From the NCBI GenBank assembly GCA_003133285.1, contig PKWR01000129.1:462-24521 (forward strand): a DNA stretch of 24,060 bases, written 5' to 3'. Made by a program: the position numbers and the translations under genes. The stretch's first letter is position 1, and every line of letters starts with the position of its first letter. Positions 809 to 23,866 of the stretch are shown piece after piece. The notes beneath the pieces are model-generated. The model saw only the letters and a program-made list of their open reading frames with translations, did no database searches and was not told the origin of the DNA. This stretch comes from Coriobacteriia bacterium. Lineage in GTDB: Bacteria > Actinomycetota > Coriobacteriia > Anaerosomatales > PALSA-660.

Positions 809-848
809 AGGCCCGGCTCCGCGCGGTCACCCGAGGGAGCAGCACGGA

Positions 849-4773: not shown

Positions 4774-7083
4774 TCAGCGCGTGGTGGCGGCGACCTGGAT
4801 GCGCTCCCTGATACGCATCGCGAGGTGTCCGAGCGCTCCAGCGTCGGTGACCGGCTCCCCGGACTCGTCGGTGGCGTGGAACACGTCGTTGGCGACGCCG
4901 CTCCGGGTGACGGCGCGCGCCCACGTGAGACGCAGGCCCGTGTCGGCGAACGCGCGGGAGATGTCGTAGAGCAGGCCGGGCCGGTCTGCGGCGCGCACGC
5001 GGACCGCGGTGGCGTAGGCGCCTGTGTCTTCGACCCGCACCAGCGTGCGCGCACGTGCGCGCGGCGGATAGTGGCGCTTGCGCTCGGCCAGGCGGGTCGC
5101 GAGCCCGGCGGGATCGGCCAGGCCTGCGCCCAGATGGCGCTGGAACGCGGCCCACGTGGACGTGTCGATCCCGGCGCGGGTGTCCGAGCGCACCACGAAG
5201 ACGTCGAGCGCGACCCCGCCGTGCGCGTCCCATGCGTCGGCGGCATGGATGTCGAGTCCCGACAGGCACAGGGCGCCGCACAGCGTCGCGAAGAGGCCGG
5301 GACGGTCCGGGGCGGCGACGCTGACGCGCCACGTGCCGGACGTGGGCCCGCCGGCAACGGCGACCGCGAACGCGTTCGGAAGCCCGCTGCCCGCGACCTC
5401 GGCGACGAGCCCGGCGTGGCTCACCACGGCTTCGGGCGCGACCGCGGCGAGGTAGCGCAGCGGGGCCCGGAGGACGAAGGCGGCTGCGCGCGCCGACGGC
5501 TGTTCACCCAGGAGGGCCAACGCGGCGGCGCGTGTGACCTCCGCCCTGTCGACCGTACCGGCGCTCGCGAACGAGCCCGAGAGGGAGGCGCGCAGGCGGT
5601 CGGCCAGCTCGCCGACGAGCGCCGCGTGCCACGCACTCCAGGCGCCCGGTCCCGTCGCCAACGCGTCGGCCGCGGTGAGCACGAACAGGGAGTCGACGAG
5701 GTCGCGGCGTGGGACGAGCGCGGCCGTGCGCACGATCACGTCCTCGTCGTGGATATCGCGCCCCGCGGCGGTCTCGGCGAGCAGCAGGTGCTCGCGCACG
5801 AGCAGGGCCGCGTCGTCCACCTGCTCGGGCGCGAGACCGAAGCGGACGCCGAGGGTGCGGACCGCGGCCTCGCCGCGTTCGGCGTGACCCGGGCCGCGCT
5901 GCGACTTGCCCACGTCGTGCAGGAAGGCCGCGGTCAGGAGCGGGCGCCGGTCCCCCGTGCCCTCGAGCGCTCGCATGATGTCGGGCTGGGTGCTCGCGCT
6001 CGCGATCGTGGTGGCGCACCGCAGGCAGTGCGCGCCGACGGTGAAGGCGTGCGACAGCGCCGGCCGGCGCACGTGCATGAGCTCGCCGAAGGCGGGTGCG
6101 AGGTCGTCGAGCAGTCCCGCCCACGCGGCCTCCTCCAGCGAAGGCAGCGCGTCATCGCCGCGGTCGAGCAGGCCGAACAGACCCTCGCCCTCGATTGCCG
6201 CCGGCGCACCCAGGCGCGGGTCGAAAGCGGTCGGTTGGCCGGCGAGCCTTCCGCGGACCCGGCGCGTAAGGTGATGCACGTCGGCCAGCGCGCCCTGCAG
6301 CGCCTCGGCGTCGAGCCCGGACTCCTCCGCCTCCTCGATCGTGAGCGTGGCGGACGCGCGCGGCGCCGCGCGATGCACCACCCAGCGGCCCGCGTCCAGC
6401 AGACCGGCAGCGCGGTCGAGCGCCTCGACCTCGCGCTCGCCCAGCAGGCCGAGCCTGCACAGAGCGGCCGGTCCCGGCTGCGGCGCGCCGCTGAGAACGG
6501 CTGCGAGCCACGTGAGCTCGTCGAGGTCGCGCCGCCCGCCCGCACCGTCCTTGAGGTCGGGCTCGAGCAGGTAGGGGGAGCTCGGGCGTTCGCGGGCGGT
6601 CAGCGCGGGGACGAGCTTGCGCGAGCGCTTGTACGCGCCGGCTGCAGCCTCCGCCAGCACCCGCTGCCCGAGCGCCGCGTCGCCGCACAGCACGCGGCCG
6701 GTCAGCGTGGCGGTGAGCGTCTCGAGGTCGTCGCGGACCGCACGCTCGTGATCGCGACGCGATCGCACCTGATGGCCGACCGAGAGGCCTGCGTCCCACA
6801 GCGGGTAGAGCACGCCGGTCAGGGCGGGCCGCAGCTCGTTCGCGGGCGCGTCGGTCACCACCAGGAGGTCGAGGTCGGAGTGCGGCAGCAGCCGGTGCGC
6901 GCCCCAGCCGCCGAGCGCGAGCACGGCCCACGGCGAGCGAAGGGGAGACAGGGCCGTCTCCGCGAGCGCGGAGACGGCCCTGTCGGTCAGGTCGCTGAGA
7001 GCACGGGCGGCGTCGCTCCCCGGTGTCGCCGAGGAGACGAGCTCCGTCCTCTGCGCGAGGAAGCCCGCGACGTCGGCGCCCAC
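4774..7083 (-). CDS. glnD: [Protein-PII] nucleotidyltransferase / removing enzyme
   Basis: NT domain ALGGWG...PHSDLDLL, EPDLKDGAGGRRD, HD domain (TVGAHC...FLHDVGK...GHAERG), and two C-terminal ACT domains (APDRPGLF; AADRPGLLYDI). Follows amt and P-II. Confidence 0.92.
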   Translation of the reverse strand: MGADVAGFLAQRTELVSSATPGSDAARALSDLTDRAVSALAETALSPLRSPWAVLALGGWGAHRLLPHSDLDLLVVTDAPANELRPALTGVLYPLWDAGLSVGHQVRSRRDHERAVRDDLETLTATLTGRVLCGDAALGQRVLAEAAAGAYKRSRKLVPALTARERPSSPYLLEPDLKDGAGGRRDLDELTWLAAVLSGAPQPGPAALCRLGLLGEREVEALDRAAGLLDAGRWVVHRAAPRASATLTIEEAEESGLDAEALQGALADVHHLTRRVRGRLAGQPTAFDPRLGAPAAIEGEGLFGLLDRGDDALPSLEEAAWAGLLDDLAPAFGELMHVRRPALSHAFTVGAHCLRCATTIASASTQPDIMRALEGTGDRRPLLTAAFLHDVGKSQRGPGHAERGEAAVRTLGVRFGLAPEQVDDAALLVREHLLLAETAAGRDIHDEDVIVRTAALVPRRDLVDSLFVLTAADALATGPGAWSAWHAALVGELADRLRASLSGSFASAGTVDRAEVTRAAALALLGEQPSARAAAFVLRAPLRYLAAVAPEAVVSHAGLVAEVAGSGLPNAFAVAVAGGPTSGTWRVSVAAPDRPGLFATLCGALCLSGLDIHAADAWDAHGGVALDVFVVRSDTRAGIDTSTWAAFQRHLGAGLADPAGLATRLAERKRHYPPRARARTLVRVEDTGAYATAVRVRAADRPGLLYDISRAFADTGLRLTWARAVTRSGVANDVFHATDESGEPVTDAGALGHLAMRIRERIQVAATTR

Positions 7084-7454: not shown

Positions 7455-8684
7455 CTAGAACTCGTACCCGGTTTCCGCGTGCTCCGCGACGTCCAGGCCC
7501 GTCGCCTCGGACTCCTCGTCAACACGCAGGCCGATCGTAAGGTCGATACATTTCAGGATGATTGCGGATGCGATAAGGGAGAAAGCTATCGTCGCGCCGA
7601 CGCCGACGAGCTGCTTGCCCAGCAGTGCCAGGCCGCCTCCGAAGAGCAGGCCGTTGGCTCCGGCGGAGTTGACCGTGACGCTCGCGAAGACGCCCGTCAG
7701 TATCGCCCCGGTCGCGCCGCCCACCCCGTGGACCCCGACGACGTCGAGCGCGTCGTCGAAGCCGAAGCGCGACTTGAGGCGGAGGCCGAAGTAGCACAGG
7801 CAGCCGGTGATCGCGCCGATCGCCAGTGCGGGCATCGGCCCGACGAAGCCCGCGGCGGGCGTGATGCCCACGAGGCCCGCGACGGCGCCCGAAGCCGCGC
7901 CCAGGACCGTCGGCTTGCGTCCGGTGAGGACCTCGGCCGCGGTCCACGCGAGCATTCCGGCGGCCGCCGAGAGGTTGGTCGCCAGGAACGCGGAGCCCGC
8001 GAGCTGGCCGGAGCCGAGCGCGGAGCCAGCGTTGAAGCCGAACCACCCGAACCACAGGATCCCGGCGCCGAGCACCGACATCGGCACGTTGTGCGGTCGC
8101 AGTTCCTCGGTGCCGTAGCCCTTTCGCTTGCCGAGCATGAGCGCCGCGGCCAGCGCCGCCGCCGCCGACGCGATGTGGACGACGGTGCCGCCGGCGAAGT
8201 CGAGCGCGCCGAGCTTCTGGAGCCAGCCGCCGCCCCAGACCCAGTGGGCGAGGGGGCTGTAGACGAGCAGCGACCACAGGGCGGCGAACGCGACGAAGGC
8301 CTTGAACTTCATCCGCTCCGCGACCGCGCCGGAGATGAGACCGACCGTGATGATGGCGAACATGCCCTGGTACATGGCGAAGACGCTGGTCGGGATCGCC
8401 GATGGGCCGGTACCTGTCACCGCACCGACCACGCCGTCGAGGCCGAGGTGGGAGAGCCCGCCGATCACTCCGCCGTGGTCGCCTCCGAAGGCGAGCGTGT
8501 AGCCGATCGCCGCCCAGATCACCGAGACCAAGCCCATCGCGAAGAGCGAGTGCATGGTCGACGACAGCACGTTCCTGCTGCGCACCATCCCCGCGTAGAA
8601 GAGCGCGAGCCCGGGGGTCATGAACAGCACCAGGGCTGTGGAGACGAGCATCCAAGCGGTGGAACCGGTGTCGACGGCCGGCAT
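7455..8684 (-). CDS. amtB: Ammonium transporter, 409 aa
   Basis: DTGSTAWML...LFMTPGLALFYAG, HWVWGGGWL, DFAGGTVVH, WFGWFGFNAGS, FDDALDVVGVHG. AAGGAGG precedes ATG 8684; the ORF-track extension to 9077 is not real. Confidence 0.95.
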   Translation of the reverse strand: MPAVDTGSTAWMLVSTALVLFMTPGLALFYAGMVRSRNVLSSTMHSLFAMGLVSVIWAAIGYTLAFGGDHGGVIGGLSHLGLDGVVGAVTGTGPSAIPTSVFAMYQGMFAIITVGLISGAVAERMKFKAFVAFAALWSLLVYSPLAHWVWGGGWLQKLGALDFAGGTVVHIASAAAALAAALMLGKRKGYGTEELRPHNVPMSVLGAGILWFGWFGFNAGSALGSGQLAGSAFLATNLSAAAGMLAWTAAEVLTGRKPTVLGAASGAVAGLVGITPAAGFVGPMPALAIGAITGCLCYFGLRLKSRFGFDDALDVVGVHGVGGATGAILTGVFASVTVNSAGANGLLFGGGLALLGKQLVGVGATIAFSLIASAIILKCIDLTIGLRVDEESEATGLDVAEHAETGYEF

Positions 8685-8756
8685 GAGGGCCTCCTTCATC
8701 GGGAACGGCGAGGGCGGCCTTCCTTGCGCCGCCCACAGACACCCTAAGGGCCGCAT

Positions 8757-8815
8757 GTTTCGCCGGTGTTTCTGCACCGTGACGCTGCGAAGAACCTCCG
8801 AAACACGGGGGAAAC
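8757..8815 (-). promoter_or_regulatory. Actinobacterial GlnR-type boxes upstream of amt
   Basis: The minus strand reads GTCAC-n6-GAAAC-n6-GAAAC (8783 to 8757), fitting the gTnAc-n6-GaAAc consensus. A second GAAAC-n6-GAAAC lies on the plus strand at 8800-8815. Confidence 0.7.
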
Positions 8816-8847
8816 GAACGGCCCTTGGTGTAGAGTGGCCCGAGGTA

Positions 8848-8861
8848 CGAACACGTGTTCG
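8848..8861. promoter_or_regulatory. LexA (SOS/Cheo) box upstream of uvrA
   Basis: Perfect palindrome CGAACACGTGTTCG matching the Gram-positive CGAAC-N4-GTTCG consensus. TACAAT -10 at 8876-8881 places the -35 region within the box. Confidence 0.85.
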
Positions 8862-8937
8862 ATTGCCCGTGTGCGTACAATGAAGGTTCGTGAGAAACCG
8901 CTCCTGAAATCGGCGCGACAGGAAGGACCCCGGAACC

Positions 8938-11826
<2,889 letters not shown>

Positions 11827-11983: not shown

Positions 11984-12025
11984 TTGACACGCCCGATTGC
12001 GGGCGCATACTCGGAAACGTTTTCC
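11984..12025 (+). promoter_or_regulatory. Sigma70-type promoter for the TPR-NHL genes with two dyad elements
   Basis: TTGACA (11984-11989), a 16-bp spacer that is itself an inverted repeat (CGCCCG-ATTG-CGGGCG), CATACT (12006-12011), then GGAAACGTTTTCC (12013-12025). Confidence 0.55.
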
Positions 12026-12083
12026 ACTGCGAGTCGGACAAATCCCCGGCAGGACCGGCCCCGCAAAGAGCTCTTGGAGACAA

Positions 12084-13184
12084 ATGGATCCGGTCGACAC
12101 CGTCGAGGCCGCCTCGTCGTCACACGCTCCTGCACCCATCTCCACCGATACCGATCCCGCCCGCTCAGCCAAGCTCGACACCTGGCTGACTGTCGGCGTA
12201 TGGGTCGTGGGCGCCTCCCTCGTGCTGTTCGCCGGGTTCTTCGGGTGGAGTGTCTACGCCCAGGCGCAGGCGGCGCGGCTCTCATCGCCCGCGATGCAGG
12301 TCATCGACGCGCTCCAGAAGCAGGTCGACGCCACTCCCAAGGACCCCACCCTGCATTCCCGACTCGCCGAGGCCCTTGGCACCGCCGGTATGTTCGACCG
12401 GGCGACGGCCGAGTTGATCATCGCCGTGAAGCTGGATCCGACCTTCGCGGGCGGCTACGAGAACCTCGGCGCCATCGCGATGACCCAGAAGAACTACTCC
12501 GACGCGGAGAAGTACTTCAACAAGGTCCTCGAGCTGACCTCGACCGGTGACTACCAGAACGTCAACCAGCGGCGTGACGAGGCGTACTTCTACCTGGGCG
12601 AGATCGCGCTCATCCAGAAGCGCTACGAGGACGCCGTGGGCTACTTCAATGCCGCGATCCGCGTCCGCAAGGACGCCTCCGACTCGTACCTGCGCCTGGG
12701 CCAGGCATACGCCGGGCTCGGTCAGAAGGACCAGGCCAAGGAGCAGATCAACATCGCGCTCGCGTTCGACCCTCACTTCGCCGAGGCGCACTACGAACTC
12801 GGCAAGCTGCTGATCAGCGAGGGTGACAAGGTCAACGCCGCGTGGGAGTTCCGCGCCGCGCTCGACTCGATGCCCGACCAGCCCGACCCGCAGGCGGCGC
12901 TCGACGCCCTCGGTCCCTATGAGGAGTGGTATGCCGCAGCGTCGAAGGCATGGCTCGCGGGAGACGAAGCCGCGGCCCTCGACGACGTCCGCATCGCGCG
13001 GGCGATCAGCCCCGATAGCTACGACGCGGCCATGCTGAACGGCCGCATCCTGGACAAGATACGCGATTTCGCCGGGGCCGCTGACGCCTATGCGGTCGCG
13101 TTCAAGGTCGATTCCTCGAGCAAGGAAGCCACGTCGGCGTTTGCGCTTTCCGTGGAAGCCAGCCGGACAGCGGGCGCGAAGTGA
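12084..13184 (+). CDS. Membrane-anchored tetratricopeptide-repeat protein, 366 aa
   Basis: One N-terminal TM helix (WLTVGVWVVGASLVLFAGFFGWSVY), then multiple TPR units (e.g. AYFYLGEIALIQKRYEDAVGYFNAAI; AHYELGKLL...A). GGAGA before ATG 12084. Confidence 0.85.
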   Translation: MDPVDTVEAASSSHAPAPISTDTDPARSAKLDTWLTVGVWVVGASLVLFAGFFGWSVYAQAQAARLSSPAMQVIDALQKQVDATPKDPTLHSRLAEALGTAGMFDRATAELIIAVKLDPTFAGGYENLGAIAMTQKNYSDAEKYFNKVLELTSTGDYQNVNQRRDEAYFYLGEIALIQKRYEDAVGYFNAAIRVRKDASDSYLRLGQAYAGLGQKDQAKEQINIALAFDPHFAEAHYELGKLLISEGDKVNAAWEFRAALDSMPDQPDPQAALDALGPYEEWYAAASKAWLAGDEAAALDDVRIARAISPDSYDAAMLNGRILDKIRDFAGAADAYAVAFKVDSSSKEATSAFALSVEASRTAGAK

Positions 13185-14689
13185 GGCGACGCCAGAAGCG
13201 CAAGATCGCCGCACTCGTCATACTGATCGGGCTGCTCGCCCTCCTCGGCGCATGGTTCGTGAACTTCCAGGCGACCAAGAGCCTCACCATCGACCTGAGG
13301 GCCCCGGCGGCGGACTCGCTCGACCCCCCGACCTACATGTTCTCGTTCACGGGCGCCGGCGCGAATCATCTCGAGCAGCCGATCGGCGTGCTGGCGACCG
13401 ACACGGTCGTGTACGTCGCCGACTCACGTCTCGGGCAGGTGGACGTGTTCAGCGAGAACGGGACCTTCCTCCGCGCGTTCGGCAAAGGCCAGCTGGTCAC
13501 GCCGCTCTTCCTCGCGAAGGACCCGAAGGGCGGCAACCTCTACATCGCCGACCGGCGCAAGCGCGAGGTGCTCATCTTCAAGCCGTCGGGCGAGTACGTG
13601 GGCGTGTTCGATCCCAAGCTCCCCAAGGACCAGCTGCCGACGTTCAAGACCAAGGGCATCCAGTGGGCTCCGATCGCCCTCGACTTCGCCCCTGACGGCT
13701 CGATGTACGTCCTCGAGATCCTGAACGGCCATCGGATGCTGCAGTTCGGGCCGGACGGGTCGTTCATGCGCTCCATCGGCGGGAGCGGGGCGGTGTCGAC
13801 CGCGGACGAGATGGCCGGCAAGTTCCAGTTCCCCAACTCCGTGAAGGTGTTCAAGGGCGGGGTCTACGTCGCCGACAGCAACAACCGCCGCATCCAGGTG
13901 TTCGACCTTCAGGGGAACTTCAAGCGTCTGATCAAGACACTCGGTCTCCCACGTGGTATCGCGTTCCTTCCGCGGCCCGCCGGCGCCGGAGTGGGGGTCA
14001 CCGACAAGTTCGTCGAGGTCGACACACTGAGCCACGACGCGACCATCTTCACCACCGTCGGCCAGCAGGTCGTCAAGTTCGGGGAGCGTGGCGTGCTGGA
14101 CGGGCAGTTCAACTACCCGAGCGACGTCAGCGTCGGAGGCAAGTCCGTCATCTACGTCACCGACACGCAGAACGCGCGCGTGCAGGCGTGGGGCTGGCCG
14201 CAGGACGTCAGCCCGCTTCCCAAGGTGCTCCCTCGCAACCCGTGGTGGCTCCTGCTGCCGCTCCCGCTGCTGCTCCTGCCGCTGCTGTACCGCAAGAAGC
14301 GCTTCTTCGCCACGACGGACTTCGTCGAGGCTGTGATAGCGGACGGCGGGCTTGAGACGATGCTGGACCCTCGCCGGAAGTGGCTCATGACCGAGAACGG
14401 CTATGCGACCCTGAAGGACCGCGTCGAGAGCTCCCACAAGCTGGGCGAGGTCCTGGAGCCGACCGAGCACTCCGACAGCGACGCTCGTTCGCTTGTCGAA
14501 CGCATGGCTATCGACTTCGACTCGGCCGTCGTCCTCTCGTCGGCCAAGCGCACCAAGGCCCTGTGCACGGAGGACCCGGAACTCCGCCGCATGGCGAACC
14601 TGCTCGAGATCCCGGTCTACAACGCGGCCGAATTCGTGGAGAAGTTCCGGAAGCCGGGCACGTCCGCCGGCCCCGTTGCGAGTGAATGA
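13181..14689 (+). CDS. NHL-repeat beta-propeller membrane protein with a C-terminal PIN-like domain
   Basis: Basic N-terminus plus TM, NHL repeats (LEQPIGV, VYVADS, FQFPNSV..VYVADSNNRRIQVFD, GQFNYPSDV..IYVTDTQNARVQ), second TM (WWLLLPLPLLLLPLLY), then a ~125-aa tail. GTG start overlaps the TPR stop. Confidence 0.85.
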   Translation: MRRRQKRKIAALVILIGLLALLGAWFVNFQATKSLTIDLRAPAADSLDPPTYMFSFTGAGANHLEQPIGVLATDTVVYVADSRLGQVDVFSENGTFLRAFGKGQLVTPLFLAKDPKGGNLYIADRRKREVLIFKPSGEYVGVFDPKLPKDQLPTFKTKGIQWAPIALDFAPDGSMYVLEILNGHRMLQFGPDGSFMRSIGGSGAVSTADEMAGKFQFPNSVKVFKGGVYVADSNNRRIQVFDLQGNFKRLIKTLGLPRGIAFLPRPAGAGVGVTDKFVEVDTLSHDATIFTTVGQQVVKFGERGVLDGQFNYPSDVSVGGKSVIYVTDTQNARVQAWGWPQDVSPLPKVLPRNPWWLLLPLPLLLLPLLYRKKRFFATTDFVEAVIADGGLETMLDPRRKWLMTENGYATLKDRVESSHKLGEVLEPTEHSDSDARSLVERMAIDFDSAVVLSSAKRTKALCTEDPELRRMANLLEIPVYNAAEFVEKFRKPGTSAGPVASE

Positions 14690-14740
14690 AGACAGCGATC
14701 GATTGGATAGAACGCACGCAGTGCGTATGCGCATGACCGC

Positions 14741-14754
14741 GTAACACGTGTTAC
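14741..14754. promoter_or_regulatory. Perfect 14-bp palindrome, candidate operator of the hydrogenase operon
   Basis: GTAACACGTGTTAC, flanked by ATGAC (14733-14737) and GTCAT (14762-14766). Regulator unknown. Confidence 0.5.
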
Positions 14755-14805
14755 AGGACGCGTCATCGGGCGCGGTCTGTACGGCGGACAACCGAATAGC
14801 ACGAA

Positions 14806-15007
14806 GAGATATCCCACGGGTCGGAGCCGGCACTCCAAGACCCTCGGGAGTCCGGTGCGTGATTCCGAAATCACGCCCCGATACTCACGAGACACGCTTG
14901 CAACGCCATCTCCACCCGTTTGCCAGGGAGACCTGACCGACGAGAAGGAGGTGGCGTTCTTTCGTGTTACCCCGAGTCTTCCTGGGGGGCTTTTGATTTC
15001 GGGCACA
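14806..15007 (+). ncRNA. Candidate structured cis-regulatory leader RNA, family not recognised
   Basis: Hand-folded: three-way junction 14806-14886, 12-bp stem 14902-14913/14947-14958 enclosing a GAGA-tetraloop hairpin, and a third hairpin 14964-15007. Confidence 0.4.
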
Positions 15008-15045
15008 CCAGTCACGAGTCATGTATGAGGGAGGTTTGAAGGGAT

Positions 15046-16464
15046 ATGGCAGTAACCAGACGTGAATTCGTCACGACGCTGGGCATGCTTGGTGTGGCCG
15101 CGGGGATGAGCCAGTCGAACCTGGCCAAGATCACCGAGGCGTTCGCGCACGGTGGGGCATGGGCGGCCGGCGGCAGCTTCACAAGCAAGCCCAAGGTTAT
15201 CTGGGTGCACGGGGCAGAGTGCACCGGATGCTCGACGTCGCTCCTCAGCCTGTATGAGGACGCGGCCGGCGTAGCGGTCCCGGGTGCGACGGCAGACAAG
15301 AACATCTCAACGGCTGCGGCGCTCGGCATCCTCACCGGTTCGACGCTGACCGATCCGGTCGCGCAGCTCTCCGACACCGCGGTCGCGGGTCACCCGTACG
15401 GGCATCGGACGCTCGCGACGACCGGTCTGAACGTCGACAAGAGCGCGTATGCGGTCAACATCGCCGACGTGCTGATCGACTTCATCGATCTGCAGTACCA
15501 CGAGACGGTCATGGGCATGGGCGGGGACCAGGCGTACAGGTACCTGAACGCCGCCATGCACGCCAACGACGCGGTCCCGTACGTGCTGGTCGTCGAGGGC
15601 GCCGTTCAGGACAAGCTCAACAAGGGCTACTGGAACAAGTCCGGCGCCGCGTCGTGGTGCTCGATCGCCATGGACGGCACCGCGGGCGAAGAGACGGAAC
15701 TCAGCTTCGACGACGTCGTGGCCCATCTTGCCGCGCGCGCCGACTGCAAGGCAGTCATCGCCATCGGCCAGTGCGCCAGCTACGGCGGCTACCCGGCCTG
15801 CATCGGCCCCGACCTTGTCGCCCACGCGGGCGTCACGACCAAGAGCCAGACCGGTGCCCAGGGTGTCGCTGACTTCCTGAAGTCGCGCGGACTGGTCGAG
15901 GGCGCAACGGCACTGCAGCAGGGCGCCAGCGCGAAGGTCATCAACGTCCCCGGCTGCCCGGTCAACCCGTGGTGGTTCACGCTGACGGTCGTTGCCTGGC
16001 TCGTCGACGCCGTGTGCCAGACATCGGCCACCCCGAGCGCCCCGCTCGGTCTTCTCAACCACGATCTCTCACTCACCGGTGCCGGAGTCGACACGCAGGG
16101 CCGCCTTACCGCGGTCTACGGCGACCTTCTCCACGGCAAGTACTGCCCCCGCTACAAGTACTACGTGCAGCGGCAGTTCGCGACGAAGCCCGGCGAGCTC
16201 GGCTGCATGCAGAACATCGGCTGTAAGGGTCAGTCCACGATGTCGTCCTGTGGCCGCCATGGCTGGAACAACGCTCAGCCGCAGAACGAGGCAATGAACC
16301 TTGCCGCCGTCGGCACCTCGCTGGCACAGCTCGCACCGCTCCATGAGCTGGCCGACAACTCGCACGACACGATGGGCGGTTGTTGCCTGACCGCCGGCGC
16401 TCCCTGCATGGGCTGTACCGAAAAGGGCTACCCGGACGCATTCACGCCGTTCGTGGTCCGCTAA
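15046..16464 (+). CDS. [NiFe] hydrogenase small subunit, Tat-exported, group 1a-like
   Basis: Tat signal VTRREFV. Proximal cluster ligands ECTGC, GQC, PGCP; distal H..CPR...GCMQNIGCKG; medial SC...CCLTAGAPCMGC. No C-terminal TM anchor. Confidence 0.93.
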   Translation: MAVTRREFVTTLGMLGVAAGMSQSNLAKITEAFAHGGAWAAGGSFTSKPKVIWVHGAECTGCSTSLLSLYEDAAGVAVPGATADKNISTAAALGILTGSTLTDPVAQLSDTAVAGHPYGHRTLATTGLNVDKSAYAVNIADVLIDFIDLQYHETVMGMGGDQAYRYLNAAMHANDAVPYVLVVEGAVQDKLNKGYWNKSGAASWCSIAMDGTAGEETELSFDDVVAHLAARADCKAVIAIGQCASYGGYPACIGPDLVAHAGVTTKSQTGAQGVADFLKSRGLVEGATALQQGASAKVINVPGCPVNPWWFTLTVVAWLVDAVCQTSATPSAPLGLLNHDLSLTGAGVDTQGRLTAVYGDLLHGKYCPRYKYYVQRQFATKPGELGCMQNIGCKGQSTMSSCGRHGWNNAQPQNEAMNLAAVGTSLAQLAPLHELADNSHDTMGGCCLTAGAPCMGCTEKGYPDAFTPFVVR

Positions 16465-16487: not shown

Positions 16488-18434
16488 ATGGCTACTATCG
16501 AAGTCGACCCGATCTCACGCATCGAGGGACACCTCGGCGTGAAGGTCACCACCGACGTCACCGGGAAGATCACCGAAGCCGATGCTCACGGCAACCTGTG
16601 GCGCGGGTTCGAGAACTTCCTGATCGGACGTCGGGCGAACGACGCGATCACGTTCACGCAGCGTATCTGCGGCGTCTGTCCGGTCCCGCACGGCACGGCA
16701 TCGACCTTCGCCGCTGACAGCGTGCTCGGCGTCAGCAAGGGCTATGCGACGTTCAAGTGGAACGGAGTCGTCGGGACCGAAGGCGTTCCCGAGGCCGGGC
16801 TCCACGTCCGCAACATGATCCTGGCTTCCGAGTTCCTGATGTCCAGCATCACGCACTTCTACCACCTGGTCGCCCAGGACTACGTCCAGGGCCCGCCGAT
16901 CCCGCCGTGGATTCCCTACTTCCGCAACGCGGACTACGCCAGCCAGCTGCTTCTGCCCGCTGAGCGCGTCGTCCCACTGAAGAACGTCGAGGGAGACCCG
17001 AACTTCGGAACCTACCCGGGCCTCTCCAAGAAGCTGTGGGATGCGGTCATCACCCAGTACGTCAAGGCGCTGCGCATCCGTCGCCTCACCTTCGAGGCCG
17101 GCGCGATGTTCGCGGGACGCATGCCGATGGTCTCCGCTCTGGTCGCCGGTGGCACCACCAACACCTTCGAGAGTGCGCAGGAACTTCGGGAGAAGCTCGA
17201 CGTCTTCCGGGCCCTCATGACGGAAGTCGGCGACTTCGTCGTCAAGGAGTACATCCCGCTGGCGCTCGCGCTCGGCGCGCTGTACCCCAAGGACGACAAC
17301 AAGAACAACACCGCTCTCGGTGGCAATGGCGCAGGCCTCGGGAACTTCCTCGCCTGGGGTGGCTTCCCGCAGGCTGACGTCGGCGAGACCATGGCCGTCA
17401 AGGGCGGCTGGGTCATCGACGCGGCCGGCGCGGCCGTCAAGGGCGTGCTGTTGGAGTCCAAGGCAGGCGGCGTCGGCGGCGTCGGCGGTCTCGATGACGC
17501 GATCGCCAAAGTCCAAGCCAACATCACCGAGAGCATCGCGCGTTCGCACTACACGGCTTCCTACGGCTACACCGACAAGGCCACTGCCGAGTACCCCGGC
17601 GACATCACGATGACCGAGCCCGATCGCACCAGTGGCTACTCGTGGATGAAGGCTCCCCGGTGGGATGGCTATGCGATGGAGGTCGGCCCGTTCGCCCGCA
17701 TGGTCGTGAACGGCAAGTACCCGGCGACCAACACGAACGTCGTGACCGATGGCTACGCGGACATCTACGTGAAGGCCGGTGCTCTCGACGCTGCAGTGCT
17801 CTCACCCGATCTGGTGTCGGGCCTCGCCGGCGATGGCCTTGTCGGCACGGTAGCGGGCTACATCGCGGGCATGAAGGGCGGTCTGTCCACCCTCGACCGT
17901 ATCCGCGCACGTGCGCTCGAGTCCTACTGGATGGTCACGTACCTGATCGGCGCGCCGTCCAAGGACCCGGAAACCAGCGCCATCAGCTGGCCGGACGCGA
18001 CGAGCGGCGCCGGCTGGGCGGGTGCGCTCCGCACGATGGCCGCATCGACCGTGCCGAAGTTCTACCGCGACACCACAGCCCCTGTGGGCGAGGTCCACGG
18101 CTTCGGTCTGGTCGAGGCGCCCCGTGGCGCACTGGGCCACTTCGTCACCGCCACCGGCGGCAAGATCAAGTCGTACCAGTGCGTCGTTCCGACCACCTGG
18201 AACGGCTCGCCGAAGAACGGCACGGCCGCAACGTCCGCCCTCTACGAGGCGAAGAAGCACCTCAACGACGGCCCGAACCGCGGCGCCATCGAGCAGGCGA
18301 CGATCGACGTGGTCTACAACGACACCCCCATGAACGGCAGCGATCCGCACACCATCGCGGGCGCTCAGAGCGGCGTCGAGGTCATGCGTGTGGCCCATTC
18401 CTTTGACCCGTGCATCGCGTGCGCGGTCCACTAG
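16488..18434 (+). CDS. [NiFe] hydrogenase large subunit, group 1a-like, no C-terminal extension
   Basis: DPISRIEGH, RGFE, L1 QRICGVCP..H, HFYHL, EAPRGALGH, VVPTTWN, L2 DPCIACAVH followed directly by a stop. Confidence 0.96.
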   Translation: MATIEVDPISRIEGHLGVKVTTDVTGKITEADAHGNLWRGFENFLIGRRANDAITFTQRICGVCPVPHGTASTFAADSVLGVSKGYATFKWNGVVGTEGVPEAGLHVRNMILASEFLMSSITHFYHLVAQDYVQGPPIPPWIPYFRNADYASQLLLPAERVVPLKNVEGDPNFGTYPGLSKKLWDAVITQYVKALRIRRLTFEAGAMFAGRMPMVSALVAGGTTNTFESAQELREKLDVFRALMTEVGDFVVKEYIPLALALGALYPKDDNKNNTALGGNGAGLGNFLAWGGFPQADVGETMAVKGGWVIDAAGAAVKGVLLESKAGGVGGVGGLDDAIAKVQANITESIARSHYTASYGYTDKATAEYPGDITMTEPDRTSGYSWMKAPRWDGYAMEVGPFARMVVNGKYPATNTNVVTDGYADIYVKAGALDAAVLSPDLVSGLAGDGLVGTVAGYIAGMKGGLSTLDRIRARALESYWMVTYLIGAPSKDPETSAISWPDATSGAGWAGALRTMAASTVPKFYRDTTAPVGEVHGFGLVEAPRGALGHFVTATGGKIKSYQCVVPTTWNGSPKNGTAATSALYEAKKHLNDGPNRGAIEQATIDVVYNDTPMNGSDPHTIAGAQSGVEVMRVAHSFDPCIACAVH

Positions 18435-18457
18435 CCGAACCCACGGAGGTGAATACT

Positions 18458-19741
18458 GTGAAGAGAATCGCATTCGTACTGATCGCGACCTGCGCGTTCC
18501 TGTTCGCCGCAACCGGCGCCGCGTACGCGAACTTCGGCCCGCACGGTTCCTACGTCCAGGACACCGACGCCTGCGCCGGCTGCCACCGCGCGCACACGTC
18601 GTTCTCCACGCTCGGATGGACGGGCAAGGACAACGTCGTCCGTTCCAGCGCCTTGCTGATCTCGAACGCGTCGAACATGACCGACTTCTGCTATGCGTGT
18701 CATGGTGACGGCGCTCCCGGCGCCTCGACGAACGTCCAGATGGGCGTCTTCGACTCCGGCCCCGCCGGCAGCACGGGCACGGGCACGAACTCGACCTTCA
18801 ACGCCGCGCTCAACGGCGGCGGATTCGAGAAGGTCGGAGGGACCGCCACGGTCATGTCCGCACACGACATGCAGGGGTCCAAGGTCGGACCCGCCATTCG
18901 CTGGGGCTACGTCGATCCCGGCACCGGCAACTCGAACCTTGCCCCGATGGCGGCCTTCGGTTGCACGGACTGCCACGATCCCCACGGCAGCTCCAACTAC
19001 CGTCTGCTCAAGGACAGCGTCAACGGCGTGACGGTCGGCGGATACCTCGCCGGAGACGTCCCGAACCCGTGGGTCCTCTCCAACGAGCAGGGCTTCCCGA
19101 CGGGCGGCTTCAAGAAGGGCGCTGCAGGCGTTGCCGACGCGGTCCTCTACAAGCCGAACTACACGTCGCCGCAGTACGCCAAGAACTCCGGCAGGGCGAT
19201 GTCGGCATGGTGCTCCGCGTGCCACACGGCCTATGCGACCGCCAAGGACACAGGCGCCGGCTACGACTACAAGCAGTACGAGACCGTGCCGGTCTCGATC
19301 AACACCACGACCCCGACAACCGAGGTCGGCGCCAAGGTCCGCTATCGCCACCTGGTCGACATCCCTTTGACGACGGGTCAGGGCGCAGGACGCGCGCTGA
19401 ACATCCCGGTCCTGGACGACAAGGGCCTGCCGCTCGAGATGGGCATCGGAGACAACAGTGGCGTTGCAGCCAACAGCACCGCTCCCTACTGGGACAACAG
19501 GGGCAACATCTCGTGCCTGACCTGTCACTACGCTCACGGCTCCGCCGCGAAGATGACGGGCTGGGCGGTCGCCGAGCTCACGACCACGACAGTGGGAGCT
19601 GCTCCGAAGGAGACCACCGCGACGGCCAACCCGCTGCTTCCGGCGAACCAGGCCAACCAGATGGGCGTGAACCCGAACTTCTCGCAGGCGCTTCTGCGGT
19701 ACGACAACCGCGGGGTGTGCGAGCGTTGCCACAACAAGTAG
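18458..19741 (+). CDS. Secreted hexaheme cytochrome c, OmcS/CwcA-like, 427 aa
   Basis: Sec signal peptide (MKRIAFVLI...AAYA). Six CXXCH motifs (CAGCH, CYACH, CTDCH, CSACH, CLTCH, CERCH) plus exactly six other His. GGAGGT 7 nt before GTG 18458. Confidence 0.92.
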   Translation: MKRIAFVLIATCAFLFAATGAAYANFGPHGSYVQDTDACAGCHRAHTSFSTLGWTGKDNVVRSSALLISNASNMTDFCYACHGDGAPGASTNVQMGVFDSGPAGSTGTGTNSTFNAALNGGGFEKVGGTATVMSAHDMQGSKVGPAIRWGYVDPGTGNSNLAPMAAFGCTDCHDPHGSSNYRLLKDSVNGVTVGGYLAGDVPNPWVLSNEQGFPTGGFKKGAAGVADAVLYKPNYTSPQYAKNSGRAMSAWCSACHTAYATAKDTGAGYDYKQYETVPVSINTTTPTTEVGAKVRYRHLVDIPLTTGQGAGRALNIPVLDDKGLPLEMGIGDNSGVAANSTAPYWDNRGNISCLTCHYAHGSAAKMTGWAVAELTTTTVGAAPKETTATANPLLPANQANQMGVNPNFSQALLRYDNRGVCERCHNK

Positions 19742-19786
19742 GGCCGCGGCACCCCCGTACCGCTCTCTGAGTGCAGGGGATCCGAA

Positions 19787-19816
19787 GGGGGCCCCGGACG
19801 TGTGTCCGGGGCCCCC
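19787..19816 (+). terminator. Perfect 13-bp GC hairpin after the cytochrome gene, no U-tract
   Basis: GGGGGCCCCGGAC (19787-19799), loop GTGT, GTCCGGGGCCCCC (19804-19816). Confidence 0.6.
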
Positions 19817-19894
19817 GGCTCGACATTCGAACACGGCACGCAGGGTGCTGTGGAACACAGCGCGACCCCGGACGTACGACCACAGGAGGAGATC

Positions 19895-21277
19895 GTGACC
19901 GAGCTCGAGACCGAGGACCGTCCGGCGGACTATGCAGCGCTCGGCTACGTCGCGAATCCCTTCCCGCCTGTCGAAGAGACTGCGGGGCCGCTCTGGAGGC
20001 ACCTGACGACGCACGCAGCAGCCAACGCGCTGCTGTCGGCCGCTCGGCGGGCGGCGGACACCGTGCCGTCGGACGTGGTCGTGGTGACCACGGACGACAA
20101 CGTCCCGGACGACTACCCGCGCGCGGCGCTCAACGACTTCCTCCGTCGCAGCGCGAACGACACGCACCTCGGGATGATGAGCTTGAACATCCCGCTCACG
20201 ATGATGCGGCTCGGTCGCATCCGCGGGACGCTTGCTGCGATGGCGGAACTGGTCGCCGCCGTCGACCTGGAGAAGACCGTCGCGGCCTATCTTGTCTCGA
20301 CCGCAGCGGATCCCGACGCGGACCTCGCTCACGAAGCCGGTGTGACCGAGGAGGAGATCGCCGACGCGATCGCAGGGTTCGCATGCGAACCAGTGGGAGC
20401 TGTCGCGCGCGTCTTCGGGCGCCGTGAGGAAGTCCCCGAACCCAGCCGGGACGAGGAGTCCGAGGCACTGCATCGGATCTACCTGCGGGGCACCGGGCTC
20501 GACCCCGACCCGTCCGTGGATCAGGAGGGTGTCGAGGCGGTGGCCGAGATGGTCCTCCCGGAGCCGGCCACCGGGGAGGTCGAGGTCCTCACCGGCGAGG
20601 GCGAGGTCTTCGACGCGAATGCGGCGCTGCGCGACTACTTCCTCGCATACATGCGGGTCAATCTGTCGACTCTGGTCGCTCGCGCGCTCGCTTCCTACCG
20701 TGACTACGGCTCCTCGGTCTTCGCCCAGGAGCTGAAGATCACGAAGGCGCCGCGCAAGACGCTCGGCGCCGTGCTGCGTTTCATGCAGCCGCGCTGGCCT
20801 CGTGTCGTCGTTCTGTACGACGGCTTCGAGGTCTGGAACATCCTCGACGAGACGACCAAGGCCGACATCGTCGACGGCATGAACGAACTGAACGGGATCA
20901 TCGGGCGGACCGGAGTCATGGGGCTCGTCCTCGTCGACGGTCAGACACCCGAGTTGGCTGAGGCGTTCGCCGGCGGGGTGCCGGTCGACTGGAAGATGGG
21001 CGAGATCGCCGCGCTGCAGCAGGGCGCAGCCGCCTTCGATGTCGCGCTCGTCCAGCGGTGGCTCGACGCGGCCGCGTTCTCCGGCGTATCGAGGCTTCGC
21101 GCGGACGGCCCGCAACTGGCGCCGCTGGTGGACGCGTGCGCGGATGATGTCTTCCACTTCGCATGCATGGCCGAGGCTGCGGTGCGCGACGCGGCCGAGC
21201 GCGGCGTCTCGACGCTCGACCCGGTCGGCATCGCCGCCGGCATCGCGTCGGTCACCGTCACCGAGGCGGACCGGTGA
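19895..21277 (+). CDS. Hypothetical cytoplasmic protein, 460 aa, possibly a degenerate P-loop NTPase fold
   Basis: AGGAGGAG before GTG 19895. The CDS itself is well supported. The fold guess rests only on YAALGYVANPF and a Walker-B-like VVVLYDGFE; no GxxGxGKT/S is present. Confidence 0.7.
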   Translation: MTELETEDRPADYAALGYVANPFPPVEETAGPLWRHLTTHAAANALLSAARRAADTVPSDVVVVTTDDNVPDDYPRAALNDFLRRSANDTHLGMMSLNIPLTMMRLGRIRGTLAAMAELVAAVDLEKTVAAYLVSTAADPDADLAHEAGVTEEEIADAIAGFACEPVGAVARVFGRREEVPEPSRDEESEALHRIYLRGTGLDPDPSVDQEGVEAVAEMVLPEPATGEVEVLTGEGEVFDANAALRDYFLAYMRVNLSTLVARALASYRDYGSSVFAQELKITKAPRKTLGAVLRFMQPRWPRVVVLYDGFEVWNILDETTKADIVDGMNELNGIIGRTGVMGLVLVDGQTPELAEAFAGGVPVDWKMGEIAALQQGAAAFDVALVQRWLDAAAFSGVSRLRADGPQLAPLVDACADDVFHFACMAEAAVRDAAERGVSTLDPVGIAAGIASVTVTEADR

Positions 21278-22047
21278 GCGCACGGCCGCCACGTCACACA
21301 CGTGCCCGATCCGGCCGGTCGCACCGGACCCGGTGGTTCGTCGGGTCCGTGCTGGCCGTCGCAGCCGTGATCGTGGTCTTGGGCGCGTTCTCGAGGCCGG
21401 CGCCGGCCGCGCCTTCGTCCCGCACTGCGGGCTCCATCGAGGCGACCCGCGCGCCCGGCCAAGCCGCGTACGAGGCGGGGCTGCGGTCCTTGGCGTCCGG
21501 GGAGACCACGAGCGCGGTCGCGTTGTTCGAGGCGGCCGCAGCAGCGGGCAACGCGGCCGCGAAGGCGAAGCTGGACGAGACGGCGAACGCCGCGAAGCCG
21601 TCGACACCGGCGTCCGTTCCGCCCGACACCGCCTACTTCACCAAGGTGGACGACCCGGCGACCCTGCTGCCCACCGCGCTTTCGGGATACACGGTCTCGA
21701 GCGTCGAGAGGAGCGCGTTCGGCGCCATCGTTGCACTGCAGCCGACGGCGGAAGGTCCCGCGGGCAAGGTCACGCTGGTCGTCCTCACCACCTTGGACAA
21801 GAAGACCGAGGCCGGTGCGCGCTCATACGTGAACGGCATCACCAAGGCATTCCCGAAGAACCTCGCGACGGTCACGGTCGGGTCGCGCGCGGGGCGGTTC
21901 GGTACCGATGGCGCGCGGCTTGCGTCGGTCGTGTTCAGCCGCGGCCGCTACGCCTTCGAGGTGGTCGCCACGGCCTACCGCGTGGCCCCGCTCGAGGTCA
22001 AGGACGTAGTGGTCGCTGCCGCCGCCTCGTTCCCGGCGGCGCACTGA
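21274..22047 (+). CDS. Membrane-anchored hypothetical protein, 257 aa
   Basis: GTG start overlaps the previous stop (GTGA). Basic N-terminus, one TM (WFVGSVLAVAAVIVVLGAF), a helical segment, a Pro/Ala linker and an alpha/beta C-terminal domain. Confidence 0.75.
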   Translation: MSARPPRHTRARSGRSHRTRWFVGSVLAVAAVIVVLGAFSRPAPAAPSSRTAGSIEATRAPGQAAYEAGLRSLASGETTSAVALFEAAAAAGNAAAKAKLDETANAAKPSTPASVPPDTAYFTKVDDPATLLPTALSGYTVSSVERSAFGAIVALQPTAEGPAGKVTLVVLTTLDKKTEAGARSYVNGITKAFPKNLATVTVGSRAGRFGTDGARLASVVFSRGRYAFEVVATAYRVAPLEVKDVVVAAAASFPAAH

Positions 22048-22087
22048 CCGCCGTCGGCGGTCCGATGTCTGGAAGGTCTGATAGCGC

Positions 22088-23866
22088 ATGAGATCGACAC
22101 CGCGAGTCCTGACCCTGCTCCTTCTCGGAGCGGCGCTTCTGTTCCTCCCGTCCGCCGCGTTCGCGGGCGCCCCCACCATGGCGCCTGCGGAGATCCGTTC
22201 GGAAGGGTTCGAGACCGCGCCCGCCGCGGACTGGCTGATCGAACCCGTCGGGGGCCAGTTCCCGCCGCCGGCGGCATGGTGGGGGCGGGTGACCCAGCGC
22301 GCCTACTCCGGATCGTACGGGCTGTGGTGCGCGGGATCGCCGAACGGGTGGGGGACGGGCCTGTACCCGAACTTCGCAGGTGGGCTCGCGACGCTGAACC
22401 TGCCGCAACTCGCGGACTACTACTCGGCGACGCTCTCCTACGAGTACACGATGCCGTCGCTCGGCTCGGATGATGGCCTCTCGCTGAACATCCTGTGGGA
22501 CTCGACTCCTCACACGGAGTGGGACTATCACTACGCTTGTCCACTCACTGCCGCGAGCACGTGGAGGACCGACACTTGGGACATGTCGGCCCCGGGAAAC
22601 GCCGTCAACATCTCAAGGCAGCCGGGCCGTGTGCGGTTCCAGTTCCTCGACTTCTACGGCAACACCTATGAGTCGCCGAAGGCCGGCGAGGGCGCGACGA
22701 TCGACGACGTTCTGGTCACCGGGTACAAGTACGGTCCCGTGCGCGGCCTGGCCGCCACCACCACCGGCTCCGACGTGCAGTTGTCCTGGGCCGCACCCGC
22801 CCGCTCTACCGCGACCGGTGCCATTCCCGAGGAGCGCTCCGTCACGTACCGCGTGTGGCGGGCTCCGAACGTCGTGCCGTACGTCTGGAGTGAGCTGACA
22901 ACGGACCGCACGGCGGCCACGGCGTTCACCGACACGGACACGGCCGCCCTGCGCGGTCCGTATCGCTACGTCGTCCAGACCTGGGACCCGGGCACTGGAG
23001 GCGGATACGGCGTGCTGGATCCGACCGCGACAGGCCAAAGCGTGACCCGCACCTTCGTTGCGGATCCGCTTGCACCCGCGTTCACCATCACAGGCATCCC
23101 GTCCTCCCCGACTCCCAACGCGGTTCTGCCGGGCGTGTCAACGACCGAGACGCCCCGGCCGGCGGTTTCCGCGATGTTGGACGGCCTCCCGTTCACGATC
23201 GGCTCGAGCATCACCGCCGAGGGCTTCCACGGGCTCGTCGTGCGCATCACGACGCTGGACGATCGCGTAGCCGAGCAGGTGGTCAGCTTCACCATCGACA
23301 GGCACGCGCCATCTACGACGAGCGACGCGCCGAGGAGCACTGTGCTGGCGCCCGTGACCGTACATCTCTCGGTCGTCGACGGGCCGGCGCCGAACCCTGC
23401 GGGAGTCCGCGCCACGTACTACTCGCTGGACGGCGCCGCATACAAGACGTACGCGGGGAGCATCTACGTCTCGAGCTATCGGGACCACACGCTCAGCTAC
23501 TACTCTGTGGACAACGCGGGCAACAAGGAGTCGACGCACAGCGTCACGTTCTCGAACCGCTTCCGGGAGACACTGTCGGTCAAGTCCTCGGTCACGACCG
23601 GACGGTACCGCCACTCGTTCACGTTGTCCGGATACCTCTACAAGGGGTACGCGGGCGATCACGTCTACCTGAAGTACCAGAGGCCGGGCAGCTCGACGTG
23701 GTACTCGGTCACGCGACATGCGACGGCGGCAAGCGGCACGCGCGGCAGATGGAGCTACTCGTTCTTCCCGACCAAGAAGGGCACGTACCACTTCAAGGCG
23801 TACTTCGGCGGGACGACGGCACGCTACAAGGTGACGTCGCCCACGATCTCGGTGGTCGTGAAGTAG
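22088..23866 (+). CDS. Secreted multidomain cell-surface protein (jelly-roll/MAM-like, FN3 and Ig-like domains)
   Basis: Signal peptide ending AFA. GEGATIDDVLV jelly-roll end, FN3 (VRGLAAT...VQLSWAAP...YRVWR...FTD...YRYVV), and an Ig-like repeat (TYYSLDG...HTLSYYSVDNAGNKE). Basic, Tyr/Ser/Thr-rich C-terminal domain. Confidence 0.8.
   Translation: MRSTPRVLTLLLLGAALLFLPSAAFAGAPTMAPAEIRSEGFETAPAADWLIEPVGGQFPPPAAWWGRVTQRAYSGSYGLWCAGSPNGWGTGLYPNFAGGLATLNLPQLADYYSATLSYEYTMPSLGSDDGLSLNILWDSTPHTEWDYHYACPLTAASTWRTDTWDMSAPGNAVNISRQPGRVRFQFLDFYGNTYESPKAGEGATIDDVLVTGYKYGPVRGLAATTTGSDVQLSWAAPARSTATGAIPEERSVTYRVWRAPNVVPYVWSELTTDRTAATAFTDTDTAALRGPYRYVVQTWDPGTGGGYGVLDPTATGQSVTRTFVADPLAPAFTITGIPSSPTPNAVLPGVSTTETPRPAVSAMLDGLPFTIGSSITAEGFHGLVVRITTLDDRVAEQVVSFTIDRHAPSTTSDAPRSTVLAPVTVHLSVVDGPAPNPAGVRATYYSLDGAAYKTYAGSIYVSSYRDHTLSYYSVDNAGNKESTHSVTFSNRFRETLSVKSSVTTGRYRHSFTLSGYLYKGYAGDHVYLKYQRPGSSTWYSVTRHATAASGTRGRWSYSFFPTKKGTYHFKAYFGGTTARYKVTSPTISVVVK

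Follow-up and report, generated by a model that had tools for sequence, protein, structure and literature searches.

We analysed a stretch of 24,060 nucleotides (the window, whose positions are used throughout) from contig PKWR01000129.1 of a Coriobacteriia bacterium, in which a spacer of 356 nt (14690-15045) separates a gene for an NHL-repeat protein from an operon for a [NiFe] hydrogenase and a multihaem cytochrome c. This spacer likely holds a lineage-specific transcription attenuator, lying in the approximately 300-nt 5' leader of the operon. A GC-rich stem-loop with a U-tract was found between the promoter and the start codon, together with an alternative helix whose formation excludes the terminator. 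The strands involved are called regions 1 to 5 and a helix is named after its two strands, so that 3:4 is the terminator stem, 1:3 the antiterminator and 1:2 a hairpin at the 5' end (Table 1). The leader is a candidate new cis-regulatory RNA family, confined to one Coriobacteriia order and dedicated to the hydrogenase operon.

The comparison covered 146 genomes of the host's order and 83 genomes of other orders of the class; 54 distinct leaders were collected, alignments of 25 and 50 sequences were made, and a covariance model (R1) was built from 50 leaders. A 12-bp stem AACGCCATCTCC/GGAGGTGGCGTT (14902-14913/14947-14958) around CAGG-GAGA-CCTG, followed by CTTTCGTGTT, had been noticed in a first-pass annotation of the leader; it was confirmed, proved to be the most telling part of that annotation and corresponds to a conserved intrinsic terminator. 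In this 3:4 stem, 94% of the alignment cells were paired, and double changes occurred in 29 cells as compared with 11.9 ± 2.1 after shuffling (0/500). A cognate test was also performed, in which each leader's own strands were compared with mismatched partners from other leaders in 5000 permutations; the cognate 3:4 duplexes reached -18.1 kcal/mol and the non-cognate ones -15.5 kcal/mol (0/5000). The terminator hairpin of the window has an energy of -29.5 kcal/mol (family mean -28.6) with 6 U in the next 10 nt, and the U-tail contains at least 5 U of 10 in 33/50 leaders. Region 3 reads GCCNCCUCC-ACCCGU in transcript order, and region 4 in family terms is AAGGAGGUGGC followed by the U-rich tail (14945-14968), while the inner hairpin of the terminator is variable across the family.

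The alignments show that region 1 can take either of two partners, forming a local hairpin with GACCC (14839-14843) or a 13-bp helix with 14905-14919. The latter helix uses the 5' arm of the terminator, and the terminator (14902-14958 plus the U-tail) is then impossible. The 13 pairs of helix 1:3 are interrupted by one bulge and by an internal loop of 2 x 2. In the MAFFT alignment its strands paired in 88.9% of cells versus 42-57% with the partner slid, and 24 cells carried compensatory double changes versus 11.1 ± 3.2 in the shuffles (0/500); the closing pair occurred as CG (13), AU (11), GU (4) and GC (3). Cognate 1:3 duplexes were again more stable than non-cognate ones (-22.4 versus -20.9 ± 0.26 kcal/mol, 0/5000), and no cognate advantage was obtained in the control with one strand reversed. 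The same test applied to the inward extension of 1:3, formed by the flanks of the middle domain, gave -16.9 versus -14.5 ± 0.39 kcal/mol (0/5000). Because both 1:3 and its inward extension covary, the 'on' fold can be described as a single, long and irregular hairpin domain. Region 1 contains the most conserved block of the whole leader, GGAGCCGGCA (14823-14832), and also C23, C24 and A28, the only nucleotides of the domain that are conserved but mostly unpaired. Region 2 is GRCCC (14839-14843) and pairs with GGGUY, to which the host genus adds a GGAG/CUCC pairing and a CCGGCA hexaloop; GGGUY and GRCCC could pair in 90.8% of cells versus 28-74% with the partner slid.

Folding of the growing transcript was consistent with an exchange between these helices. 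When transcripts ended after region 3, helix 1:3 was present in the minimum free energy (MFE) structure of 48/50 leaders; when region 4 was added, the terminator appeared in the MFE structure of 39/50 and the 5' hairpin was back in 23. In the window, the antiterminator snapshot had an energy of -49.2 kcal/mol, and with the transcript extended through the U-tail the terminator fold had -73.2 kcal/mol as compared with -62.1 for the forced antiterminator. Of all helices, covariation was strongest between the interior of the terminator and the 50 nt downstream of it, which contain region 5, the cognate energy being -21.5 versus -15.7 ± 0.44 kcal/mol for non-cognate partners (0/5000). If 1:3 was forced, this inner:5 helix formed in nearly all of the 50 leaders with a mean of 9.6 bp, and it narrowed the gap between the two full-length folds (means -84.0 and -89.2 kcal/mol). 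Helices 3:4 and inner:5 together would give an H-type pseudoknot arrangement. The inner:5 helix is transcribed too late to take part in the termination decision, and we read it as a probable lock on the read-through conformation. The unpaired probability of the true Shine-Dalgarno (SD) sequence of the small-subunit gene in the two folds was 0.64 and 0.21 in the window and 0.41 and 0.34 in the family (p ~0.03); coupling of the fold to SD accessibility, clear in the window and weak across the family, was therefore rejected as a family-wide trait.

Taken as an attenuator, the leader would work in the following way. Transcription would start near 14738 from a conserved promoter that carries an operator palindrome. 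While region 3 has been made and region 4 has not, the antiterminator domain would be the most stable fold; as region 4 emerges, it would be thermodynamically able to invade and to form the terminator, and since it can do so, premature termination would be the default outcome. Read-through would then need something that holds the antiterminator domain, or that keeps the 5' hairpin from trapping region 1, and after read-through region 5 and the terminator interior would pair and lock the 'on' fold. As the switching helices account for almost all conserved nucleotides, a protein or another trigger is as conceivable as a ligand.

Several points weigh against this scheme. A third of the leaders (17/50) have a modest U-tail with fewer than 5 U of 10, and in 8/50 the antiterminator is still the MFE structure with region 4 present. 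For the 1:2 hairpin neither two-sided covariation nor a cognate advantage was obtained, only pairing potential. The 50 sequences are related, and the significance derived from shuffles is overstated for this reason. The start of transcription, its termination at the U-tail and the read-through are predictions, and the data are compatible with a leader that may be constitutively leaky rather than regulated.

Every complementarity that the first-pass annotation had claimed was present where it had been placed. Its stems P1, P2 and P3 consist of standard pairs only, TCGGA (14821-14825) is indeed the reverse complement of TCCGA (14864-14868), and a terminator-like hairpin lies at 14970-14992, where a third hairpin (14964-15007) had been proposed. 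The stretch also folds better than its dinucleotide shuffles (-90.1 versus -70.3 ± 4.2 kcal/mol, n=200, z = -4.73), and for the whole spacer the fold had z = -3.6 relative to chance. The three-way junction built from P1 to P3 did not hold, however. It is not the best fold of 14806-14886 (-29.5 versus -36.5 kcal/mol for the MFE), covariation was absent from its outer helix P1 across 50 relatives (1198/5000 permutations reach the observed value), and P3 together with the pseudoknot suggested for TCGGA falls in a segment that varies in sequence and length even between the closest relatives; the nucleotides of P1 and P2 belong to another, conserved element with different pairing. The SD-like AAGGAGGTG, which had been taken for a buried ribosome site, is the 3' arm of the terminator, and no start codon follows it in 33/50 relatives. 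What survives of the proposed aptamer with expression platform is thus a conserved, structured leader with a platform of the terminator type, whereas the junction and pseudoknot aptamer is neither the MFE structure nor conserved.

The leader was found to be conserved among orthologous hydrogenase loci, with the terminator and antiterminator helices covarying as described above. The small-subunit gene is present in 63 of the 146 genomes of the order, and the same blocks could be recognised by eye in the upstream regions of 30 hydrogenase loci. Model R1 gave 56 matches in 55/146 genomes, as a single copy each or as two where a genome has two hydrogenase loci; all of them adjoin the small-subunit gene, the leader copies lying about 200 nt upstream of it. 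R1 had no match in the 83 genomes from other orders or in family f3 of the host's order, whose leaders are of a diverged subtype; a second paralogue (L008) and the leaders of the molybdenum cofactor (Moco) type described below were not matched either. Homology over the whole leader to Moco-type, f3 and L008 leaders was therefore rejected, and only short motifs are common to them. An exact pattern of two blocks was also run over 185,579 species genomes and gave 37 matches, 24 of which had the hydrogenase start, the palindrome or both and came from the same lineage (metagenome-assembled genomes (MAGs) labelled Coriobacteriia or Actinomycetes); the other 13, from other phyla, had no hallmark and are not true copies. 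A 14-mer of region 1 matched 68 times in 58/146 genomes as compared with about 15 times for the reversed control. All 14-mer matches accompanied by other hallmarks are upstream of the hydrogenase, and the copies elsewhere, in coding-like DNA and without a hallmark, were put down to chance.

The first-pass annotation had regarded the leader as unrecognised, with no match to the GEMM, NiCo or cobalamin consensus, and the Rfam covariance-model search agreed with it. At the gathering score there was no match in the window or in 20 orthologous loci, and at E <= 10 nothing relevant was found on the leader or on 15 further leaders, where only chance matches to miRNA models appeared; the models for GEMM (cyclic di-GMP (c-di-GMP)-I, RF01051), NiCo (RF02683), cobalamin and Moco (RF01055) did not reach threshold on the leader. 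Positive controls were recovered by the same search, namely the Moco riboswitch at 67.6 and 69 bits in sister leaders and c-di-GMP-I at 71.5 bits elsewhere in the host genome. The NiCo riboswitch was not found in five whole genomes either, but control genomes were equally silent and this search is uninformative. In the host genome of 1.87 Mb, GGDEF matches above the family cut-off number 15, and a single c-di-GMP-I riboswitch (71.5 bits) is present (e.g. C88:10287-10760; C74:3547-3639); cyclic-dinucleotide signalling is thus active, and heavy for so small a genome. No publication was found on a leader or riboswitch of a [NiFe] hydrogenase, nor on the domain content of GSU2505. A candidate motif named 'hya' was sought in Weinberg et al. 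(2017), but the term was not found in the main text (PMC5737381).

A predicted promoter lies upstream of the whole element. Its boxes in the window match the family consensus less well, and scanning the window with the consensus returned no sigma-70-like site; the strict promoter consensus together with the palindrome was present in 46/53 orthologous leaders. We infer a transcription start near 14738, just ahead of the palindrome. The palindrome follows the promoter by 4-22 nt; its arms are invariant and its N4 is variable, which fits a DNA site for a protein better than an RNA hairpin, and it is probably the operator of a repressor. One copy of it is found in the host genome and 1-3 per genome in five relatives, and the extra copies examined precede leaders with a Moco riboswitch. 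A reading as a Rex site, whose layout (TTGTGAA-N4-TTCACAA) it may resemble, was set aside, as 1-3 copies per genome do not make a global regulon. A sigma-54 promoter with GGCAC of the conserved block as its -24 element was rejected as well, because the -12 spacing lacks a GC and the flanking bases form RNA pairs.

Table 1. Features of the hydrogenase leader and its surroundings. Coordinates are those of the window unless a locus handle (L100, L102) precedes them.
Feature	Coordinates	Strand	Details
B12-binding radical SAM protein	798-2132	+	
GlnD-like uridylyltransferase	4774-7083	-	
Ammonium transporter	7455-9077	-	
UvrA	8938-11826	+	
TPR protein	11997-13184	+	Immediately 5' of the NHL gene
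NHL membrane protein	13181-14689	+	N-terminal transmembrane (TM) helix, extracytoplasmic NHL beta-propeller, second TM helix, cytoplasmic PIN-like domain of ~130 aa; Pfam NHL and translation
PIN-like domain	14294-14686	+	AlphaFold2 (AF2) pLDDT 89.9
Predicted promoter	14703-14731	+	-35 TTGGAT (14703-14708), 17-nt spacer, -10 TATGCG (14726-14731); weaker copy of family consensus TTGACN-N17-19-TAnnnT
Operator-like palindrome CGTAACACGTGTTACA	14740-14755		Just past the -10 box; family consensus TGTAAC-N4-GTTACA; in 51/53 leaders
Region 1, 5' switching strand ACGGGUCGGAGCCGGCA	14816-14832	+	(Near-)invariant columns; consensus ACGGGUYGGAGCCGGCA
5' hairpin 1:2 (anti-antiterminator)	14818-14843	+	GGGUC/GACCC and GGAG/CUCC, hexaloop CCGGCA (14827-14832); in MFE
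Variable middle hairpin	14844-14892	+	Contains P3 of the first-pass annotation (14857-14876); MFE; sequence and length not conserved
Region 3	14902-14919	+	Terminator 5' arm AACGCCAUCUCC (14902-14913) and ACCCGU (14914-14919); 14905-14919 alternatively pair with region 1
Inner hairpin of terminator	14923-14936	+	CCAGG-GAGA-CCUGA; MFE; 14923-14932 can also pair with region 5
Region 4 and U-rich tail	14947-14968	+	Terminator 3' arm GGAGGUGGCGUU (14947-14958, SD-like), tail CUUUCGUGUU (14959-14968)
Region 5 GUCUUCCUGG	14976-14985	+	Complementary to 14923-14932; within the third hairpin of the first-pass annotation and a second terminator-like hairpin (14970-14992)
True SD and start codon of small subunit	15027-15048	+	GAGGGAGGU (15027-15035), ATG (15046); both invariant alignment columns
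[NiFe] hydrogenase small subunit, twin-arginine (TAT) signal	15046-16464	+	Pfam Oxidored_q6 and NiFe_hyd_SSU_C
Hydrogenase large subunit	16488-18434		Operon gene 2
Multihaem cytochrome c	18410-19741		Operon gene 3; multihaem Pfam matches
Moco/tungsten cofactor (Wco) riboswitch, P3 absent	L100:1358-1480	-	RF01055
Moco/Wco riboswitch, P3 absent	L102:1335-1454	-	RF01055

The gene that ends just before the leader encodes a membrane protein whose conserved C-terminal domain adopts a PIN-like fold in the structure model. A Foldseek search with this model returned the PIN folds of HARP RNase P, Nob1 and VapC (probability 1.0, TM-score 0.59-0.65), and PIN clusters of the Atlas matched it at 0.65-0.73; the Pfam PIN models gave no match in the domain at E <= 10 and NCBIfam gave none either. 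In 11 homologues the first Asp is nearly invariant and D63 invariant, and the last Asp is N or S in 3/11. This gene stands directly upstream in 11/11 hydrogenase loci (the window and 10 others), and paralogues of it end 150-200 nt upstream of 22/32 Moco leaders examined in the order.

Moco/Wco riboswitches (RF01055) were found in 134/146 genomes of the order, with several per genome and three in the host genome. Those at L100 and L102 (67.6 and 69 bits) precede a TAT molybdopterin oxidoreductase. Inside the oxidoreductase gene, SECIS_3 matches below threshold were seen at L100:428-486(-) and L102:362-420(-) (38 and 34 bits, gathering 63), which suggests a putative selenocysteine formate dehydrogenase. 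The Moco leaders (L141-L170) are of two types, the aptamer being followed either by a terminator or by a second module, in which a hairpin, its loop often CCGGCA(A/G), is joined by a GGGGUAAGGGAGG box and a long terminator. The second module occurs only where a PIN-like open reading frame (ORF) ends just upstream, and in 0/9 Moco leaders without an upstream PIN match. A CCGGC[ATG] loop is present in 12/30 Moco leaders versus 3.5 expected; the host genus's own Moco leader has a GACG loop instead. In such Moco-type leaders an AUG, in some cases AUG-stop, often stands 8-12 nt past the G-box, just before the terminator; among the main-type hydrogenase leaders, about half have a G-box in the middle domain, and the window leader has none. 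The upstream gene, the promoter and the operator are thus common to two donor-oxidising operons, that of the hydrogenase and the Moco-gated one, of which the latter is under a cofactor riboswitch. Together with the leader modules, this promoter and operator outline a predicted small regulon for electron-donor oxidation in these bacteria.

In f3 (loci L023, L026, L033 and L034) the hydrogenase leader has diverged and is about 390 nt long. The CCGGCA loop sits on a covarying stem here, and the leader also contains the same G-box as the Moco-type leaders, GGGGUAAGAGGGG followed by AUG and an open frame of 60-80 codons whose coding value is doubtful, a terminator of its own and additional conserved blocks.

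As to the wider setting, the host assembly (GCA_003133285.1) is a 1.87-Mb MAG that is 82% complete. Pfam gave no match on either strand for the ORFs past the cytochrome (19771-23866), and the sole domain match there was an OmpL47-type beta-barrel domain found with NCBIfam in ORF 22088-23866. Isolates of Anaerosomatales/OPB41 have group 1i hydrogenases (PMC9686372).

What would hold the antiterminator domain can be weighed against the features collected above. The leader has the layout of an ON-type terminator riboswitch, in that its closing helix shares a strand with the terminator, the 3' strand of the former being the 5' arm of the latter, and we tentatively entertain the possibility that it is a true ON riboswitch, the domain closed by 1:3 being an aptamer for a small molecule or metal (e.g. 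Ni2+ or a signalling nucleotide) and the ligand blocking invasion by region 4. C23, C24 and A28 of region 1, invariant yet mostly unpaired in the helix, speak for this reading, as do the 8-23 GGDEF proteins that these genomes encode; by analogy with the sister operons, where a Moco riboswitch sits at the equivalent place, a hydrogenase leader could sense the cofactor of its enzyme. However, outside the switching strands the sequence and length of the domain are almost wholly unconserved, it is rod-like and not a multi-helix junction, it matches no known aptamer model, and canonical c-di-GMP-I riboswitches elsewhere in these genomes mean that c-di-GMP already has its RNA. It appears rather doubtful that the leader is a protein-dependent attenuator, in which an RNA-binding protein reads the (GGAG)CCGGCA loop and chooses between the 5' hairpin and the antiterminator. 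The PIN-like domain of the upstream NHL protein is the best candidate, and would tie an extracytoplasmic signal to read-through or cleavage of the leader. An invariant, partly unpaired loop common to otherwise unlike leaders is typical of a protein site, and in the f3 subtype the CCGGCA loop has likewise been retained on a covarying stem; the upstream gene with its PIN-like nuclease fold is conserved at all 11 hydrogenase loci, its paralogues stand before 22/32 Moco leaders, and the second module is confined to those leaders. On the other side stand the missing Pfam PIN match, the replacement of the last catalytic Asp in three homologues, the GACG loop in the Moco leader of the host genus, and the circumstance that a membrane-anchored regulator of nascent RNA is, to our knowledge, without precedent. 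We think it unlikely that the leader is the target of a new one-component transmembrane regulator encoded directly upstream, with an NHL propeller outside and a PIN-like RNA-binding or RNA-cleaving domain inside; it is just as unlikely that such a regulator would couple an outside signal (e.g. contact with an electron acceptor or mineral) to read-through of the hydrogenase and formate-dehydrogenase operons via the CCGGCA hairpin.

It is improbable that there is no regulation at all, the hairpin and U-tail being no more than a terminator of the NHL gene or a leaky insulator, with the remaining structures serving mRNA stability or processing, or the terminated RNA of about 230 nt acting as a small RNA. 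There is no terminator between the NHL stop (14689) and the promoter (14703), so transcripts from upstream enter the leader, and the inner:5 helix is made after the termination decision, as such a reading would allow. But the conserved promoter is upstream of the terminator, which means that hydrogenase transcripts must cross it; a plain terminator has no use for a covarying helix whose formation excludes it, and the element occurs once per genome and solely before the hydrogenase. Ribosome-mediated attenuation, with a leader peptide or a 30S subunit at the SD-like box of region 4 (AAGGAGGUG) deciding termination, seems very improbable indeed. Region 4 is a 9-nt SD match and region 3 resembles an anti-SD, and the AUG right before the terminator in Moco-type sister leaders points in the same direction; region 4 is SD-like because it pairs with region 3, however, and the accessibility of the true SD is nearly alike in both folds across the family. 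ATG, GTG or TTG was found 4-13 nt past region 4 in just 17/50 leaders and the peptides were unrelated, for which reason a leader peptide after region 4 was rejected.

No RNA-level control of a respiratory [NiFe] hydrogenase was found in Rfam or in the literature searched. The attenuator proposed here offers a defined switch, with two covarying and mutually exclusive helices at known coordinates, and it precedes an H2-oxidising multihaem-cytochrome operon of a widespread, mostly uncultured subsurface and peat lineage. Should the leader prove to bind a ligand, it would establish a new class of riboswitch, perhaps one that corresponds to the Moco riboswitch in front of the sister formate-dehydrogenase operons. 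Should the effector be the NHL/PIN-like protein encoded upstream, signals from outside the cell would have a new route to nascent RNA.

Among known systems, protein-dependent attenuators such as PyrR, TRAP, the RNA antiterminator (RAT) sites of BglG/LicT and ANTAR resemble the hydrogenase leader in their exclusive terminator and antiterminator and in having a small, conserved hairpin to which a protein might bind, but the dual AxxGxx hexaloops, the (G/U)AG repeats and the RAT are missing from it. An ANTAR target consists of two tandem hairpins whose hexaloops have A at position 1 and G at position 4; it was rejected here, as there is a single hexaloop, CCGGCA, with C at position 1, and it is a hexaloop only in some genera. 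We know of no PIN-like domain that acts as an attenuator protein. In Geobacter, GEMM-Ib riboswitches, which respond to cyclic GMP-AMP (cGAMP), sit upstream of omcS and other electron-transfer genes; there, too, a terminator-bearing leader RNA precedes an operon with a multihaem cytochrome, whereas the hydrogenase leader has no c-di-GMP-I match in sequence or structure. From ON-type terminator riboswitches (the adenine riboswitch of pbuE, the Mn2+ riboswitch yybP-ykoY and the NiCo riboswitch of czcD) it differs in having no conserved junction or pocket, a freely variable middle and no Rfam match, yet it shares the 5' domain closed by a helix whose 3' strand doubles as the 5' arm of the terminator, and a closing helix that forms first and needs protection from strand invasion for read-through. 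The Moco/Wco leaders (RF01055) of the same genomes have an aptamer that is absent from the hydrogenase leader (E <= 10), and R1 misses them, so that only short motifs are shared. They are nevertheless set up alike, with the gene for the NHL-TM-PIN protein, the TTGACN/TAnnnT promoter, the TGTAAC-N4-GTTACA operator, a long leader and a long terminator, and many of them carry a CCGGCA-loop hairpin and a GGGGUAAGGG box, both of which are also found in hydrogenase leaders.

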